From: Clostridia bacterium
Lineage (GTDB): Bacteria; Bacillota; Clostridia; Oscillospirales; CAG-272
Length of the DNA: 64,000 nucleotides
Assembly (NCBI GenBank): GCA_017472305.1
Contig: JAFUQP010000007.1
Location: 5,272-69,271 of the forward strand
Direction of reading: 5' to 3'
This document shows positions 25,948 to 29,414 of the stretch, one piece after another. The notes below the pieces were generated by a model. It saw nothing but the letters and a program-made list of their open reading frames with translations, did no database searches and had not been told where the DNA came from. The stretch's first letter is position 1, and every line of letters starts with the position of its first letter. Made by a program: the position numbers and the translations under genes.

Positions 25948-25992
25948 AAATTAGTGTTGTAACACAACCGTTAATCAAAAGGAGGAGAGATT

Positions 25993-26223
25993 ATGTTTGA
26001 AAATCTTAAGAAGTTTCTCGTTGAAGAGCTTCGCGTGAACGAAGATGATATCACTATGGAAGCTGAGCTTGTAGGTGACCTTGGCATCAATTCTCTTGAG
26101 CTTGCAGACCTTGTTTATCTCTGCGAAGAGAAATTCAACGTAACCATTGAAGACGAAGAGCTCCACAACTTCAATACGGTTGGCGATATCGTTCGTTATC
26201 TTGAAAACGCAACAAAGGCTTAA
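25993..26223 (+). CDS. Acyl carrier protein-like phosphopantetheine carrier (stand-alone)
   Basis: 76-aa acidic four-helix pattern. The attachment motif reads GINSLELADLV, with Ser34 at 26092-26094 and Asn where Asp is usual. Confidence 0.8.
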   Translation: MFENLKKFLVEELRVNEDDITMEAELVGDLGINSLELADLVYLCEEKFNVTIEDEELHNFNTVGDIVRYLENATKA

Positions 26224-26234
26224 AAAAATATTAA

Positions 26235-26255
26235 GGGACGGCATTACGCTGTCCC
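26235..26255. terminator. Shared hairpin between convergent genes
   Basis: The stem GGGACGGC/GCTGTCCC is flanked by A/T-rich runs on both sides. Confidence 0.5.
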
Positions 26256-26271
26256 TAAATTATTAAAAAAA

Positions 26272-26707: not shown

Positions 26708-27880
26708 ATGAGCGACTTTTTAGCTAAACTTTTTATTAAGGATTACCAAAACCGTGGCAGCGGCCGCGTTCGCGAGAAATACGGAACACTTGCGTCTGTT
26801 GTCGGAGTTGTTACTAACTTTATCCTCGCGGGAATTAAGCTTCTTGCAGGGCTTCTGTCGGCATCGGTTGCTATTATTGCAGACGCGCTGAACAATCTAT
26901 CGGATGCCGGCTCGTCGGTTATTACCTACCTATCCTTTAAGGCGGCGGCGAAGCCTGCCGACAAGGACCACCCGTTCGGACACGCGAGAATGGAATACAT
27001 TGCCTCTATGGTGGTGTCCTTCCTTATTCTTCTTGTCGGTTTTGAGCTGCTTATGGACTCGGGAAAAACAGTTCTGGGCTTAAGCGAGGCGCAAAGAACC
27101 GAAATAACTCTCGTTACAATTATTATTCTCTCGGCATCTGTTCTGCTGAAGCTGTGGCTCGCCTTCTTCTACCTCGACGTAGCTAAGAAAATCGACTCCT
27201 CGGTTGTTAAGGCATCGGCTATGGATTCGCTCTCGGACTGCGTATCAACTCTTGCGGTCCTTGTTTCTTCTATAGTTATCTACTTCACCAACTGGATTTT
27301 ACTTGATGCTATCGTCGGACTCGGCGTTTCGCTCCTTATACTGTTCGCAGGCGGAAAGATACTTAACGAAACTAAAAACGCGCTTCTCGGTGAGGCTCCC
27401 GTCGAGGAAACCGTAACGAAAATTTACAAAACCGTCGAGGACTACCCCGATATTCTCGGAGTCCACGACCTGCTCGTTCATAACTACGGACCGCACACCT
27501 TTATTGCATCATTCCATGCAGAGGTTGACGGAAAGAAGGATATTTATCTGCTTCACGATATGATTGACAACGTCGAGCGAGAGATTAAAGAGAGGCACGG
27601 AATACAGTGTACAATACACCTTGACCCGATTGTAACCGACGACGAAATTGTAACCGAGCTTCAAGGCTTCCTTCGCAATATTCTCATAGAAAACGATATT
27701 GATTACAGTGTTCACGATTTCAGAACTGTCGTGGGTACAACTCACACAAATCTGATTTTTGATATCGTCCTGCCCTTCGATGCAAAAATAAAGCCTCAGG
27801 AGCTTACCTCGCTCATACAGGAGAAGGTACACAAGGCTCGTGAGGACGTGTTCTGCGTAATCACGGTTGACAGGGGTTAA
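26708..27880 (+). CDS. Cation diffusion facilitator family transporter
   Basis: Six TM helices with the CDF motifs IIADALNNLSD and DSLSD, plus a C-terminal cytoplasmic domain. ATG 26708 follows an AAGGGAG SD. Confidence 0.9.
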   Translation: MSDFLAKLFIKDYQNRGSGRVREKYGTLASVVGVVTNFILAGIKLLAGLLSASVAIIADALNNLSDAGSSVITYLSFKAAAKPADKDHPFGHARMEYIASMVVSFLILLVGFELLMDSGKTVLGLSEAQRTEITLVTIIILSASVLLKLWLAFFYLDVAKKIDSSVVKASAMDSLSDCVSTLAVLVSSIVIYFTNWILLDAIVGLGVSLLILFAGGKILNETKNALLGEAPVEETVTKIYKTVEDYPDILGVHDLLVHNYGPHTFIASFHAEVDGKKDIYLLHDMIDNVEREIKERHGIQCTIHLDPIVTDDEIVTELQGFLRNILIENDIDYSVHDFRTVVGTTHTNLIFDIVLPFDAKIKPQELTSLIQEKVHKAREDVFCVITVDRG

Positions 27881-27924
27881 TGCCCGAATTTGCGTCAGCT
27901 GCAACAAAAAACAATTGACCGAAG

Positions 27925-28383
27925 AAAAAGGAAGATGCACAGATAGCGTGATACTCTTAACGGAGTATCACGCATCGAGATAAATCCCGTATGGGATTTT
28001 CGATATGTTGCTAACGCAACTCGATATGCCTTCGGCTCGATATGTTTGCTTCACAAACGAGGGGATTTATCTCATATCGAATTGACGCACAGCGGCAATA
28101 TATCGAGCTTGAGCGGCTGGGGTTCCCCTAAGCGAAGAATGAGCTTTGGGGGTTCGCAGCGTAGCGAAAGCATATCGAGTCAACGGAGTTGACATATCGA
28201 CAGAAGAAAAAATGAGAGCAAGAATAGAAGGATTTTTCTCCTTTTACTCTTGCTATTTCTGTTTGTAATAAGGGTTTGGGCATAGCCCATTTGCGTTTGA
28301 CTAGTCAAATGCGATGCTCGCACTTTGCCCAAAGTGTAAAATTCTCCGCTAAGGACATCACCCTATTTTGCATCTTCCTTTTT
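27925..28383. ncRNA. Hairpin-dense non-coding element bounded by a 15-bp perfect inverted repeat (large structured RNA or MITE-like element; strand unresolved)
   Basis: AAAAAGGAAGATGCA (27925-27939) is the reverse complement of TGCATCTTCCTTTTT (28369-28383). At least 14 consecutive hairpins lie between them. There is no ORF of 60 aa or more. The element sits between the 3' ends of two convergent genes. Confidence 0.45.
28000..28200. repeat. Array of the 8-mer TCGATATG (three forward copies) and its complement CATATCGA (three exact copies plus one 7/8 copy)
   Basis: Forward copies are at 28000-07, 28021-28 and 28037-44. Reverse copies are at 28073-80, 28171-78 and 28193-200, with TATATCGA at 28099-106. 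A short hairpin lies in each interval. Confidence 0.85.
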
Positions 28384-28460
28384 TGATATTCAAGCAATAG
28401 TCACGGTAAGATTAAAGCGCTCAAAAAGACTCGGGGACAGCAGAAAGGAGATTTCTGCCC

Positions 28461-29414
28461 TTAAATATCTACGCGATTCAGAATTTTTCCATCAACGAAA
28501 GTCGAAATATTATCTGCTATAACCGATATGCATCTGCACCTTGCCTCATACGAGCCCCAGGCTGCGTGAGGAGTGAGAATAACGTTATCAAGCTTCATAA
28601 TCGAGGTGTAGGGGTGCGACTCACAGAAGGGCTCGGTAGAATATACGTCGGAGCCGAAGGCGGCAATTCTTCCTTCCCTGACAGCCTCTGCGACTGCCGC
28701 CTCGTCAAGCACCGCGCCGCGTGCCTCGTTTACGAGAATTACCTCGGGCTTCATTAACTTAAGTCGCTCGCGCGAGATTATACCGCGTGTGCCGTCGTTC
28801 AAGGGACAGTGAAGCGTTATTATATCACTCTCACGGCAGAGGGTATCAACGTCCACGCACTCGACGCCATCAACAGGTGTTCTCTTATTCACTATTACCC
28901 TCGCGCCGAGGCTCTCGGCTACCCTGCCGACCGCCTTGCCTATATTTCCGTAGCCGATAATACCCCATGTCTTTCCTGCAATCTCGTGGTATACGGGAAT
29001 TAATCTGTTCGGTACGCCGAGGCGAGTATATTCACCGTCGGTTACAAACCTACGGTATTCAAAAAGGTGCGAGGCAAGAGCAAGCACAGTTGAAAGAGTG
29101 AATTGTGCCACACTCTCGGTTGAATAGGCAGGAACGTTACACACCGCTACTCCGTGCCGTCTTGCGGCATTCAAATCGATATTATCGTATCCCGTCGCAA
29201 AAACGCAAATAAGCTTCAGCGCCTTTGCATAGGAGAGTACCCTTTCGGTTATCTTAATCTTGTTGAGAACTATAACCTCGGCGTCACGTATGCGCTCTTC
29301 CATCTCACAGTCCGTGGTATTAGCGTATATTTGCAGCTCACCGAAGCCCGATAAATAGTCCTTTATCGGCGTATCCTCGCCAAGAGATGCGCTGTCGAGT
29401 ACCTTGATAAGCAT
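28461..29414 (-). CDS. D-isomer-specific 2-hydroxyacid dehydrogenase (glycerate/hydroxypyruvate reductase-like)
   Basis: NAD-binding motif GIIGYGNIGKAVG and the catalytic R..E..H arrangement. 317 aa. Confidence 0.9.
   Translation of the reverse strand: MLIKVLDSASLGEDTPIKDYLSGFGELQIYANTTDCEMEERIRDAEVIVLNKIKITERVLSYAKALKLICVFATGYDNIDLNAARRHGVAVCNVPAYSTESVAQFTLSTVLALASHLFEYRRFVTDGEYTRLGVPNRLIPVYHEIAGKTWGIIGYGNIGKAVGRVAESLGARVIVNKRTPVDGVECVDVDTLCRESDIITLHCPLNDGTRGIISRERLKLMKPEVILVNEARGAVLDEAAVAEAVREGRIAAFGSDVYSTEPFCESHPYTSIMKLDNVILTPHAAWGSYEARCRCISVIADNISTFVDGKILNRVDI

Follow-up and report, generated by a model that had tools for sequence, protein, structure and literature searches.

A gene-less 420-bp element in a terminator loop and a family of hairpin arrays in gut Clostridia

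The BOX element of Streptococcus pneumoniae is a mosaic intergenic repeat with the structure boxA-(boxB)n-boxC. What is conserved in REP sequences is the palindrome, together with a 5' tetranucleotide, and it is this part that a linked RAYT recognises. IS1397 and ISKpn1 (IS3 family) insert in the loops of REP palindromes, IS1397 duplicating 3-4 bp, and class C group II introns target intrinsic terminators, inserting after the hairpin and not in its loop. Intervening sequences (IVSs) of 23S rRNA are located in helix 9, 25 or 45. To our knowledge, the protein family PF05635 has no known function apart from that of Avd, a protein of diversity-generating retroelements (DGRs), and its presence inside rRNA IVSs has never been explained. 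The IVS of Coxiella burnetii is 428 nt long and sits in the loop of helix 45, where its terminal inverted repeats make a 28-bp stem; it is excised by RNase III and holds a decaying S23p ORF preceded by three to four tandem heptamers (PMC4990558). Avd itself is an accessory protein that resembles PF05635 and, as stated in a review, is essential to DGR retrohoming (PMC10053308).

Here we describe a 420-bp gene-less repeat element in the spacer between a CDF transporter gene and a convergent 2-hydroxyacid dehydrogenase gene, in a window (the whole stretch of DNA analysed) of 64 kb. We class it as a MITE/BOX-like mosaic element of a new type. Like BOX, it and its relatives are modular, non-coding and structured, with an internal unit in variable number and partly complementary end modules, and both appear to be dispersed between genes and co-transcribed with their neighbours without a transposase of their own. 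There is, however, no sequence relationship to BOX: the arrays are built from a 7-nt linker plus a position-specific hairpin in a fixed 4+4 inverted layout, their linker varies by sub-family, and they are distinguished further by insertion in terminator loops and by an association with PF05635. The likeness to REP, BIME and REPIN sequences lies in short extragenic palindromes next to a short motif in alternating orientation, numerous and often in 3'UTRs, but the arrays conserve the linker while their hairpins differ, and no RAYT was found near copies in the fetched loci. The IVSs offer a different parallel. Both are inserts, about 420-430 nt long, that occupy a host hairpin loop and extend the stem of that hairpin by terminal complementarity, and both have tandem heptamers upstream of a PF05635/S23p ORF that is often decayed or absent; the array is nevertheless hosted by an mRNA terminator, as opposed to helix 25 or 45 of rRNA, its copy in the window is without an ORF, and the heptamers are separated by hairpins and arranged in two inverted arms. 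IS1397, ISKpn1 and the class C introns are precedents for targeting hairpin loops or terminators, but they have their own transposase or reverse transcriptase, whereas the present element is non-coding and seems to have duplicated 2 bp. Avd is related to the proteins that adjoin the arrays, although the arrays lack a nearby reverse transcriptase, template or variable repeat and the PF05635 genes found here stand alone.

The strangest sequence of the window thereby receives a concrete explanation, in which an insertion split a terminator and the insert brings a replacement terminator-like hairpin. It also leads to an apparently undescribed family of unusually regular 4+4 layout; uncultured gut Clostridia carry it in at least 85 species-level genomes, with several copies in each. 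A mobile element that lands repeatedly in the loops of intrinsic terminators would bear on the annotation of terminators and 3'UTRs. Finally, the arrays are tied statistically to PF05635/TIGR02436, a large protein family, and this raises the question whether binding to the heptamers controls expression, RNA processing or mobility.

Insertion of the element into a terminator loop

The initial annotation had described a hairpin-packed gap bracketed by a perfect 15-bp inverted repeat, and read it either as a large structured RNA closed by that repeat or as a MITE-like element with the repeat at its termini. The repeat is as described, AAAAAGGAAGATGCA and TGCATCTTCCTTTTT being complementary over 15 nt (100%), and the imperfect similarity that continues inward is stretched by blastn to 41-44 nt at about 82% identity. 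The 11-bp stem (27946-27956 with 27963-27973), the 16-nt arms (28217-28232 with 28239-28254), the palindrome around 28293-28312 and the long-range pair of 27977-27988 with 28062-28073 (GAGATAAATCCC/GGGATTTATCTC, 12 nt, 100%) were all recovered, the last backed by compensatory changes. The gap holds no wholly internal ORF of 60 aa or more, an antisense ORF at 27509-27940 merely touching its edge. Its dense hairpins fold far beyond chance on both strands (z ≈ -11): the + strand of 27925-28383 reaches -185.1 kcal/mol compared with -120.6 ± 6.1 for shuffled sequences (z = -10.6), and the - strand reaches -175.9 kcal/mol (z = -11.8).

To see what the 15-mers are, we compare the window with L195, a related locus whose CDF protein is 96% identical to that of the window. 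Its orthologous spacer of 150 nt has an intact hairpin, AAAAAAGGAAGATGCT-actcttt-AGCATCTTCCTTTTT, so that ...AAAAAAGGAAGATGCT-actcttt-AGCATCTTCCTTTTTaatattcaag in L195 is matched by ...AAAAAGGAAGATGCA-cagAT-(420 bp)-ATtt-TGCATCTTCCTTTTTTgatattcaag in the window. The 15-mers are the two halves of the stem of a host bidirectional intrinsic terminator common to both genes, and the 420-bp element is inserted into its 7-nt loop, the stem halves now standing 429 nt apart. The site is empty in L195, L194 and L197 (CDF proteins 96, 88 and 66% identical to that of the window, respectively) and filled in the window, L004 and L005. When the flanks in the window are rejoined the hairpin is restored, its fold reaching -22.9 (+ strand) and -20.7 (- strand) kcal/mol, as compared with -21.8 for L195. 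The 15-bp repeat also has the attributes of a terminator, i.e., a GC-containing stem set between an A-run and a T-run, located just after convergent stops: AAAAA-GGAAGATGCA ... TGCATCTTCC-TTTTTT lies 45 nt past the stop codon of the CDF gene. The hairpin in L195 is assigned as a terminator from its fold and its flanking A and T runs, and is not listed by a simple terminator scan, probably because these runs lengthen the stem. The CDF protein, read from the ATG start at 26708, has an exact-protein match.

Because of the empty site in L195, the 15-mers can be rejected both as the terminal inverted repeats of the element and as the closing helix of an RNA. From the MITE-like reading, what survives is an insertion measured against an empty site and a dispersed, multi-copy family, with the 15-bp repeats given up as its ends. 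From the structured-RNA reading, the closing helix is refuted, since the stem exists uninterrupted in L195, and the interior is upheld, in that its hairpins covary and it appears to act like a structured single strand.

The ends that do belong to the element lie just within the 15-mers and are imperfect repeats, AGCGTGATACTCTTAACGGAG and CTCCGCTAAGGACATCACCCT. Written as AGCGTGWTNTCCTTAACGGA (left) and TCCGCTAAGRACATCACSC (right) they match at about 17 of 21 positions and are present in the window, L100, L153, L184, L193 and L139; in short form the end motifs are GCGTGATGTCCTTAACGGAG...CTCCGCTAAGAACATCACGC. The left-end motif GCGTGWTNTCCTTAACGGA is kept in all window-type copies and also in L198, which has the same chassis with different linkers. 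The layout of the spacer is given in Table 1.

The same element is found in other terminators, within AAACACGGACGGC/GCCGTCCGTGTTTTTT in L153, AAAAGCGACACC/GGTGCCGCTTTT in L193 and AAAAAAAGCGAGGA/TCCTCGCTTTTT in L077, and in a like manner in L137 and L184; these copies are bracketed by unrelated A-run/stem...stem/T-run pairs. The AT before the element in the window is repeated after it, at 28365-28366, and the flanking dinucleotides are AT/AT in the window and L077 and TT/TT in L153, L184 and L193. Note that the resulting 2-bp target duplication (AT or TT) is putative, as it is drawn from one true empty site and from reconstructed sites for the other copies, and the loops are T-rich. The window copy is a recent insertion, as the element is lacking in L195, where the CDF protein is 96% identical. 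The full-length copies in the unrelated terminators of L153, L184 and L193 are mutually only about 76-78% identical, and any mobility may therefore be ancient.

Table 1. Positions of the host terminator, the inserted element and its parts, numbered along the window.
Feature	Position	Strand	Basis or detail
Left half of host terminator (A-run and 5' arm AAAAAGGAAGATGCA)	27925..27939	.	Complementarity; L195; refolding
Remnant of original loop, CAGAT	27940..27944	.	AT at 27943-27944 is the putative left copy of the target duplication
Inserted element, mosaic, without ORF, 420 bp	27945..28364	+	Absent from L195, L194 and L197
Left end and P0' hairpin, AGCGTGATACTC-TTAACG-GAGTATCACGC	27945..27973	+	11-bp perfect stem
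Hairpin-array core	27974..28200	+	Same architecture in at least 120 loci; hairpins and X:X'' covary
Core left arm, TCGATAT heptamers L1, L2 and L3	28000, 28021, 28037		Mini-hairpin after each; followed by the reverse-complement heptamers
Core left arm, degenerate heptamer L0 (TCGAGAT)	27975
Core left arm, X hairpin	27982-27999
Core centre, X''	28062-28073
Core right arm, ATATCGA heptamers (reverse complement)	28074, 28100, 28172, 28194		Hairpins between
Enlarged, duplicated right-arm hairpin h4 (GAGC...GCGA)	28107..28171	+	Direct repeat; ~40-nt module GGGGTTCCCC...GAGCTTTGGGGGTTC
Internal bidirectional terminator-like hairpin, AGCAAGAATAGAAGGA / TCCTTTTACTCTTGCT	28202..28265	.	A-run on the left, T-rich tail on the right
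3' domain, three small hairpins (TGGGCATAGCCCA; GCGTTTGAC-TA-GTCAAATGC; CACTTTGCCCAAAGTG)	28266..28344	+
Right end CTCCGCTAAGGACATCACCCT, imperfect inverted copy of the left end	28345..28364	+	- strand from 28345: GGGTGATGTCCTTAGCGGA
AT (putative right copy of the duplication), TT of the old loop and right terminator half TGCATCTTCCTTTTT	28365..28383	.
Weak terminator-like hairpin and T-run, outside the element	28424..28460	-	Directly after the 2-hydroxyacid dehydrogenase stop; fold ≈ -9.6 kcal/mol

Architecture, fold and distribution of the arrays

The regularity overlooked in the initial annotation is a constant, AT-rich heptamer between the hairpins. The core of the element, ~225 nt long, has four copies of TCGATAT followed by four of ATATCGA, with a small hairpin between each. 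Within an array the linker heptamer is constant and each position has its own hairpin, with a stem that differs from the others, is short and G-C-closed, and has a loop that is free to vary. Other sub-families carry different linkers with arms that are still complementary, i.e., the linkers are "alleles" on a common chassis.

Several of the parts listed in Table 1 can be followed through the family. The hairpin h4 is unexpanded (GCTTGAACGNAGTGAAAGC) in L087 and L193, and its ~40-nt module occurs elsewhere, within L116 and L192. The internal terminator-like hairpin folds with -22.6 (+ strand) and -21.6 (- strand) kcal/mol and has a UUUUUU tail on the - strand; it is kept in every window-type copy, including the truncated L188 and L189, which extend no further than this hairpin on their 3' side, and it would be expected to act as a terminator. 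The 3' domain is conserved in L100, L116, L153, L184 and L193, with compensatory changes, L100 having AGGC/GCCT in place of GGGC/GCCC, and with G·T that recurs on the + strand, as judged by eye in a small sample.

A pattern scan shows the core architecture at a minimum of 120 loci, which represent about 85 species-level genomes of Oscillospirales/Christensenellales. At least 120 stretches were listed where an estimated ~0.04 would be expected by chance, and inspection ruled out that the matches are unrelated tandem repeats. Many genomes have several copies, MAG SIG450 alone having 8 loci and many more genomes 2-3 each, while the genome of the window is represented by 64 kb with one copy; the blastn search proposed for further copies, run with the element against these 64 kb, did not find a second. 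Metagenomes provided ten further window-type copies. Some assembled contigs stop inside the element. Half-arrays, consisting of the left arm only, make up 43 of 142 clusters, and being so common they imply that pairing between the arms cannot be essential.

The initial annotation recognised no tmRNA, RNase P, 6S RNA or riboswitch, in agreement with Rfam 15, which gives no match at gathering score anywhere in the window. Rfam 15 covers ROOL, GOLLD, OLE, raiA and HEARO as well. Within 27800-28500, searched with E allowed up to 10, its only matches have E ≥ 6, and the arrays of 16 related loci do not match any family. We found no description of these arrays in the literature, whether searched by motif, by terminator MITEs, by REP/RAYT in Firmicutes or by PF05635, and the family of hairpin arrays in gut Clostridia is apparently undescribed. 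By blastn the element has no match among 50,697 phage and 72,556 plasmid records.

Comparison of 25 distinct cores argues that the hairpins are selected as such. In the alignment 93.8% of cells are paired, compared with 24-43% in slid controls, and double changes occur in 30 pairs, compared with 17.4 ± 1.9 after shuffling, a value reached in 0 of 500 shuffles. The long-range helix X:X'' has three covarying pairs, including pair 5-101 (UA in 20 cores and GC in 5), which is not explained by the alternative pairing L0:R4, and it appears from these changes to close the left arm. The fold proposed by RNAalifold is instead a rod in which L:R linker helices are nested. That this is the sole fold seems doubtful: across the TCGATAT set the linker pairs show no variation, half-arrays are common, and in window-type copies L0:R4 is broken while X:X'' compensates.

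The mismatches also differ between the strands. On the TCGATAT strand there are 19 cells with G·T or T·G versus 4 with A·C or C·A, and in h4 the oriented composites have G·A or A·G in 5 versus C·T in 1, where the counts are of cells and not of independent events and alignment A2 is partly imperfect. The upstream gene is co-oriented with the array in 44 of 56 cases.

Promoters and neighbouring genes

Many copies carry a sigma-A promoter. In about 20 of them TTGAAA or TTGACA, N17 and (TGn)TATAAT, with spacers that vary, stand directly ahead of the first hairpin. For the window copy itself there is no convincing promoter.

An all-against-all comparison of the ORFs in the loci left PF05635, the 23S rRNA intervening-sequence protein, as the only recurrent neighbour that is not a housekeeping gene. 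The array is immediately upstream in 12 of the 13 PF05635 genes with a visible flank, among them all four genomic contexts that were sampled via the PF05635 protein alone. In L208 the order is right arm, ORF (S23p), left arm. The PF05635 genes with arrays include ones with other linkers, and the identity of the proteins is 72-100% for TCGATAT, 60% for GCGATAT, 53% for GCTAAAT and 45% for TATGTAAT, although this correlation is based on single examples and may reflect phylogeny. No PF05635 gene was found in the 64-kb window by tblastn. We consider the association between the arrays and PF05635 to be a strong lead. A broader proposal, which we put forward only tentatively, is that the arrays are the specific nucleic-acid partners of PF05635 proteins and that array and S23p together make up an unrecognised selfish or regulatory cassette. 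It would have a clade-specific linker heptamer and would colonise hairpin loops (of terminators and of rRNA helices), promoter-proximal leaders and 3'UTRs, and the arrays without an ORF would be its MITE-like or regulon copies.

Proposed mechanism and alternative explanations

In our view the observations are probably best explained by a 420-bp mosaic mobile element, a member of the large family of arrays, that split a common terminator. At the start, one bidirectional intrinsic terminator was common to the CDF and 2-hydroxyacid dehydrogenase genes. The window-type composite would move as DNA via a transposase acting in trans. This enzyme would read the imperfect ends AGCGTGATGTCCTTAACGGAG and CTCCGCTAAGAACATCACGCT and insert the element at terminator hairpins, in their single-stranded loop, where 2 bp (AT or TT) would be duplicated. 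After insertion, the internal hairpin at 28217-28254 may stand in for the broken terminator, and the element may be tolerated because this bidirectional terminator-like hairpin of its own replaces the one it broke. The TCGATAT strand would be the functional single strand, transcribed in the window as the 3'UTR of the CDF mRNA; other copies would be read from a promoter directly before them and would in many cases form a 5' leader. Shown between the hairpins, the heptamers could provide a binding platform for the oligomeric four-helix-bundle protein PF05635 (S23p), and the window copy would derive from a unit of array plus S23p, as an orphan that lacks the ORF. Around the ~130 copies, in ~1 Mb of sequence with 1,419 ORFs compared all against all, there is no recurring transposase, RAYT or other recombinase, and neither these ~1 Mb of loci nor the viral collection contain a longer element with the same ends and a transposase. 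Longer relatives with the same ends do exist: L139 carries a 67-aa membrane ORF, and L164 adjoins a lipoprotein gene.

It is possible, if doubtful, that the core arrays are mainly cis-regulatory RNA elements of the host and not selfish DNA, located in 5' leaders and 3'UTRs of a PF05635 regulon, with the window copy working as a 3'UTR module in the CDF mRNA. In many copies the array stands after a conserved promoter and ahead of the RBS of a gene, the genes being diverse, which is in line with this reading, as are the G·T bias and the covariation, both of which indicate a single-stranded form. An array that serves as the leader of the PF05635 gene itself would fit autoregulation, and the shift of linker type with PF05635 sequence divergence points in the same direction, except that it could come from phylogeny alone, with single examples. 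The window copy does not behave accordingly, however: it is a recent insertion, a composite with end repeats of its own, and it landed in a terminator loop like other copies, which is the behaviour of a mobile element.

The element could also be the mRNA-terminator counterpart of a 23S rRNA IVS, that is, a selfish sequence that extends a host hairpin and is excised by RNase III, and whose full versions carry an S23p ORF. A 420-bp element in a hairpin loop above a perfect 15-bp closing stem has that appearance, relatives of the core directly precede or bracket S23p genes (L208), and the IVS of Coxiella is alike in size, loop position, terminal repeats and heptamers before the S23p ORF (PMC4990558). 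We nonetheless think it unlikely, since the element lies outside rRNA, with no rRNA match in the window, the window-type chassis is never found with an S23p ORF, and a closing stem of ~15-19 bp is short for RNase III.

A decidedly improbable explanation is that the hairpins are incidental palindromes and that the heptamers are sites for a DNA-binding protein in double-stranded DNA, for instance subterminal transposase sites as at the ends of Tn7, Mu or Tn402, or iteron-like sites. Four direct and four inverted copies of one motif could be understood in this way, particularly in elements that are mobile and whose motif varies by sub-family while the arms stay complementary. The spacing of the sites is variable though (14-25 bp), a heptamer is short for a DNA site and there is no transposase nearby. 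The sequences between the linkers are clearly selected to pair, with 30 covarying pairs, and the excess on one strand of G·T over A·C and of G·A over C·T is not expected from double-stranded DNA.

Mobilisation as a REP/BIME-type element by a RAYT (Y1 HUH transposase) seems very remote: short hairpins stand beside a conserved single-stranded motif, direct and inverted, in many extragenic copies, but here the linker is constant and the hairpin is different at each position, the opposite of REP, and no Y1 transposase gene recurs near copies in the fetched loci. We give next to no credence to a stand-alone gene for a large structured ncRNA with ends paired by the 15-bp repeat; for all its very low fold z-score and an MFE fold that closes with the 15-bp helix and about four more pairs (the left end forming its own hairpin), the same 15-bp stem is without an insert in L195, as an ordinary terminator, other copies are flanked by the unrelated stems of their own host terminators, and the window copy has neither an upstream promoter nor an Rfam match.

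CRISPR arrays have direct repeats of at least 23 nt with unique spacers between them, usually with cas genes. The present repeat is only 7-8 nt, the would-be spacers are palindromes of 7-17 nt conserved across genomes, the second arm is inverted, and a match to CRISPR-DR17 is due to chance (15.7 bits, with the gathering score at 42). Type III antitoxin repeats, iterons and pac/nut sites were likewise rejected, in view of too short a repeat, inverted arms, conserved hairpins and a lack of partner genes nearby. Pattern scans of the viral collection gave 35 hits for three copies of TCGATATG and 26 for two copies of CTCGATATG, with L036 in both; apart from L036, these hits come from ordinary tandem repeats or match coding sequence by chance. 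The same collection scanned with the end motifs of the element returned four chance coding hits and L198, the copy with the same chassis and other linkers.

The split terminator in the window

The two 15-nt arms between the convergent CDF transporter and 2-hydroxyacid dehydrogenase genes are perfectly complementary in an inverted-repeat search, and their similarity reaches inward to 41–44 nt at ~82% identity (blastn). Every hairpin of the initial annotation that we checked is found at the locus, as is the 12-bp pair it had offered as a long-range option. The gap contains no ORF of at least 60 aa, and the dense structure claimed for it has a predicted stability far beyond that of shuffled sequence (z = −10.6 on the plus strand and −11.8 on the minus strand). 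On these grounds the feature is real. One regularity had been missed: the hairpins are separated by a constant heptamer.

The perfect repeats had been taken for the ends of the element, but they belong to the host. We used CDF transporter protein homologues to fetch contigs and compare their spacers. In contig L195 a CDF gene whose protein is 96% identical is again followed by the convergent dehydrogenase gene, and the 150-nt spacer contains one intact hairpin, AAAAAAGGAAGATGCT-actcttt-AGCATCTTCCTTTTT. The window at the same site reads AAAAAGGAAGATGCA-cagAT, then 420 bp, then ATtt-TGCATCTTCCTTTTTT. When the window flanks are rejoined, they are predicted to form a hairpin around a 7-nt loop at −22.9 kcal/mol, against −21.8 kcal/mol for the L195 hairpin. 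Contigs L194 and L197 (CDF proteins 88% and 66% identical) are without the insert, and each has terminators of its own. Because the L195 hairpin is intact, the window flanks rejoin to the same hairpin and relatives lack the insert, the 15-mers are, by sequence comparison, the two halves of a predicted bidirectional intrinsic terminator common to the convergent genes. The same comparison shows that the real thing needing explanation is a 420-bp insertion into the predicted terminator loop. The insert is also present in assemblies whose CDF protein is identical to that of the window: L004 has it unchanged, L005 with a few substitutions.

The setting is one of ordinary chromosomal housekeeping genes (ComEC, YchF, Band7/NfeD, CDF transporter, 2-hydroxyacid dehydrogenase, L33-SecE-NusG-L11-L1, a topoisomerase subunit, Sua5 and RF1). 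The Rfam 15 covariance models gave zero matches at the gathering score over the whole window and only chance-level matches (E ≥ 6) in the element region; phage and plasmid records showed no similarity to the element. Elsewhere in the window, one stretch of identical sequence is called differently among assemblies (see table).

Coordinates of features in the window and at comparison loci (L-numbers)
Feature	Location	Strand	Remark
15-nt arms	27925-27939, 28369-28383		predicted terminator halves
Degenerate linker TCGAGAT	27975	+	repeat search and reading
TCGATAT linkers	28000, 28021, 28037	+	repeat search and reading
ATATCGA linkers (reverse complement of TCGATAT)	28074, 28100, 28172, 28194	+	repeat search and reading
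X:X'' long-range helix	27977-27988 with 28062-28073		12-bp pair
~40-nt module, window copy	28107-28171		in hairpin h4
Polymorphic left-hairpin base	27970		A/G
Stretch called differently among assemblies	25971-26270		
89-aa ORF	25975-26244	-	called in some assemblies
76-aa PP-binding (acyl-carrier-like) ORF	25993-26223	+	called in other assemblies
Longer element	L139:3250-3850		
Two direct arrays	L036:4720-4960	-	IMGVR_UViG_3300029305_012123
Rfam Gut-1 RNA match	L198:10-79	-	51 bits, gathering score 50
DUF559 ORF	L170:644-973		
DUF559 ORF	L066:6726-7046		
DUF559 ORF	L167:313-642		

Dispersed copies of the insert

The search for dispersed copies proposed earlier found no second copy in the 64-kb window and succeeded outside it: scanning metagenomes with a motif from the insert gave 10 further copies, and the genome scan several more (L087, L100, L104, L116 and L153). 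Full-length copies are 76–78% identical to the window copy. Five parts are common to the copies: a hairpin at the left end (AGCGTGWTNTCCTTAACGGA...CACGC); the array of heptamers; the hairpin GAGCAAGAATAGAAGGA...TCCTTTTACTCTTGCTC, preceded by an A-run and followed by a T-rich tail; small hairpins that make up a 3' domain; and a right end, CTCCGCTAAGAACATCACGC, which repeats the left end imperfectly in inverted orientation. The flanks of the other copies are unrelated to those of the window, yet are again terminator halves: AAACACGGACGGC/GCCGTCCGTGTTTTTT in L153, AAAAGCGACACC/GGTGCCGCTTTT in L193, an imperfect pair in L184, and, in two more distant copies, AAAAAAAGCGAGGA/TCCTCGCTTTTT (L077) and AAAAAGCGGTTG/CAACTGCTTTTT (L137). 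In most of these copies the stop codon of a same-strand gene forms the left flank. The dinucleotide adjoining the element ends matches on both sides (AT/AT or TT/TT), which suggests a 2-bp target duplication, with a real empty site behind it in the window only.

Two readings had been offered, a structured RNA and a MITE-like element. The second is the closer, since the window copy has a filled and an empty site and end repeats as a MITE does, but the perfect repeat is the host's and not the element's. We found no autonomous partner for the MITE-like copies among the fetched loci. The element probably moves by DNA transposition, with a putative enzyme that would act in trans, prefer terminator loops and make the 2-bp duplication. 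On either strand its internal hairpin has a folding energy of about −22 kcal/mol, with a U-run on the minus strand, and it is the last conserved part of the truncated copies L188 and L189. Transcription would terminate at this hairpin, which would stand in for the terminator disrupted by the insertion.

A longer element in L139 shares its end motifs with the window insert. Within it are arrays of the AGTGATATT/AATATCACT type, a terminator, a TATAAT resembling a promoter, and a 67-aa ORF whose C-terminus is hydrophobic and which matches no Pfam family; direct repeats of AAGTGCTTTTT flank the element on both sides. Short-read contigs of the window's species from Logan/ENA (L002, L003, L006, L007 and L008) end inside the element at differing points, one of them exactly at the polymorphic left-hairpin base. 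Heptamer-hairpin arrays may fragment metagenome assemblies.

A family of heptamer and hairpin arrays

The insert belongs to a large, apparently undescribed family of heptamer and hairpin arrays. A scan for TCGATATG three times over at short gaps, with each species represented by one genome, matched at least 120 stretches, where the estimated chance expectation is ~0.04. The matches listed come from ~85 different genomes, all but a handful of them MAGs of Oscillospiraceae, Acutalibacteraceae, Ruminococcaceae, Christensenellaceae and related Clostridia, most of them sampled from the guts of ruminants or other animals; eight of the loci listed are from a single MAG (SIG450). Ordinary tandem repeats with a chance TCGATATG were set apart as non-members (L072 and L149, Pontibacillus; L085, Planctomycetaceae), and L123 (Actinomycetales) was left out on taxonomy alone; it and L150 (Prevotella) lie outside the inspected set.

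The canonical core of ~170 nt starts with the linker L0, TCGATAT(A/G), and the X hairpin, followed by three more TCGATAT linkers, each with a G-C-closed mini-hairpin after it, then CGAG and X'' (the complement of the L0 end and X), and finally four ATATCGA linkers with three different hairpins between them. One right-arm hairpin (GAGC...GCGA) has conserved G·A/A·G mismatches. Among 142 clusters, 43 are ++++ alone, ~50 are ++++---- or close variants and ~10 are ----++++. Other sub-families use other linkers (GCGATAT/ATATCGC, CATGAATTG/CAATTCATG, AGTGATATT/AATATCACT, GCTAAAT/ATTTAGC and TATGTAAT/ATTACATA) in the same layout, even with the same flanking modules, and the arms stay complementary; GTGAAGTT occurs in direct arrays only. 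The arrays are dynamic. L192 has four tandem copies of a 20-nt unit, ATATTTCACGAAAGTGAAT, and a ~40-nt module, GGGGTTCCCC-nAA-GCGAAGAATGAGC-TTT-GGGGGTTC, lies within different hairpin loops in different copies (h4 in the window, h6 in L116, the 3' domain in L192, and also L185 and L188) and looks like a nested mini-insertion or duplication.

The family hairpins covary strongly. Across 25 distinct aligned cores, pairing in the seven local hairpins is 78–99%, and double (compensatory) changes number 30 pairs against 17.4 ± 1.9 after shuffling, a value reached by 0 of 500 shuffles; sliding the partners by 1–3 columns drops pairing to 24–43%. Linker-linker helices proposed by RNAalifold are invariant in this set and so give no covariation signal. 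The L0:R4 pair (R4 being a right-arm linker) is broken in the five window-type sequences, and there the X:X'' helix keeps the position by compensatory change (UA 20, GC 5). Together with two more covarying pairs, this supports the long-range pairing suggested earlier.

Several lines point to transcription of the TCGATAT strand. The TCGATAT-first strand has 19 G·T/T·G cells against 4 A·C/C·A cells, and G·A/A·G mismatches outnumber C·T by 5:1 in oriented composites, all five in h4. In ~20 copies a canonical promoter (TTGAAA or TTGACA, then 17 variable nt and often TGnTATAAT) ends one base ahead of the first hairpin, and diverse genes have half-arrays as 5'UTR. Of the nearest upstream genes 44 of 56 are co-oriented, as are 29 of 48 downstream genes. 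The window copy lacks a convincing promoter, so its TCGATAT strand would be transcribed as part of the CDF mRNA, in its 3'UTR.

Promoter-type copies (e.g. L119, L182, L110 and L134) share CAAAA-N7-9-GCATCTAAATCGTTCACTnATTTTATAAT after the last linker, and in the tandem elements of L078, L075 and L111 this motif gives the TATAAT preceding the next element's first hairpin. A 28-nt stretch, GTTTGCATCTAAACCTTATG..CGCAAT, is directly repeated either side of the array in L146 and L093. The phage-like contig L036 has one array with GTGAAGTT linkers and one with TCGATATG linkers, which share the three mini-hairpins tgcTTTgca, gccTACggc and tgccTGACggca. On one side of the arrays is a lipoprotein-like gene and on the other a 550-aa ORF for a putative portal protein, at whose RBS the second array ends. 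The Gut-1 match shares the viral contig L198 with a window-type chassis that has ATGAATTG/CAATTCATG linkers.

In being non-coding, modular, structured and without its own transposase, the family resembles mosaic intergenic repeats such as BOX and BIME/REP. The window copy falls outside the definition of REP because the constant part is the linker and not the palindrome.

The PF05635 neighbour gene

An all-against-all comparison of 1,419 ORFs from the fetched loci revealed no recurrent transposase. It revealed one small recurrent protein, at 9 loci by clustering and 11 with tblastn, that belongs to PF05635 (23S rRNA intervening-sequence protein) and TIGR02436 (four-helix-bundle protein). In 7 of the 11 loci its start codon lies 14–31 nt past the last linker. 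The gene in L111 is downstream of a GCGATAT-type array, and those in L075 and L096, which lie away from the TCGATAT array that had selected the locus, each have their own array with another linker (GCTAAAT and TATGTAAT, respectively). As a control for selection bias, we searched for PF05635 protein homologues (3,032 at E ≤ 1e-10, many on contigs shorter than 2 kb) and viewed four different genomic contexts; all four have an array immediately upstream. The order in L203 and L207 is promoter, full 4+4 array, PF05635 ORF and then another left arm, ahead of the next gene, and in L208 the ORF lies between an upstream right arm and a downstream five-linker left arm. Overall, an array is directly upstream of 12 of the 13 PF05635 genes with a visible upstream flank, and 36 nt downstream of the thirteenth (L098). 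Because TCGATAT arrays occur at no more than 8 loci per genome among the matches listed, this is a tight association far beyond chance. The window itself has no PF05635 gene.

The closest biological analogy to the element is the 23S rRNA intervening sequence (IVS). That of Coxiella is a 428-nt selfish element in the helix 45 loop, whose terminal repeats form a 28-bp stem cleaved by RNase III and whose S23p ORF is decaying, with 3–4 tandem heptamers just ahead of it; the structure of one S23p protein is cited there as a homopentameric toroid (PMC4990558). PF05635 proteins also resemble Avd, a protein that diversity-generating retroelements need for retrohoming (PMC10053308). We do not class the window element as an IVS, however, because it lies outside rRNA and the window-type chassis was never seen with an S23p ORF. 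It is the IVS-like behaviour of the element that leads us to a tentative reading of the arrays as nucleic-acid partners of the PF05635 protein, which may bind them.

In L073, L165 and L172 the array and PF05635 gene follow a putative RumA/RlmD-type 23S rRNA methyltransferase gene (C-terminus read by eye), the last codons of which (...HVESVVCLTR...) overlap the array's first hairpin; L089 is a remnant that keeps the hairpin despite a different upstream gene. The second recurrent small ORF after PF05635 is DUF559 (Vsr-like endonuclease fold), found 125–450 nt from the array at three loci.
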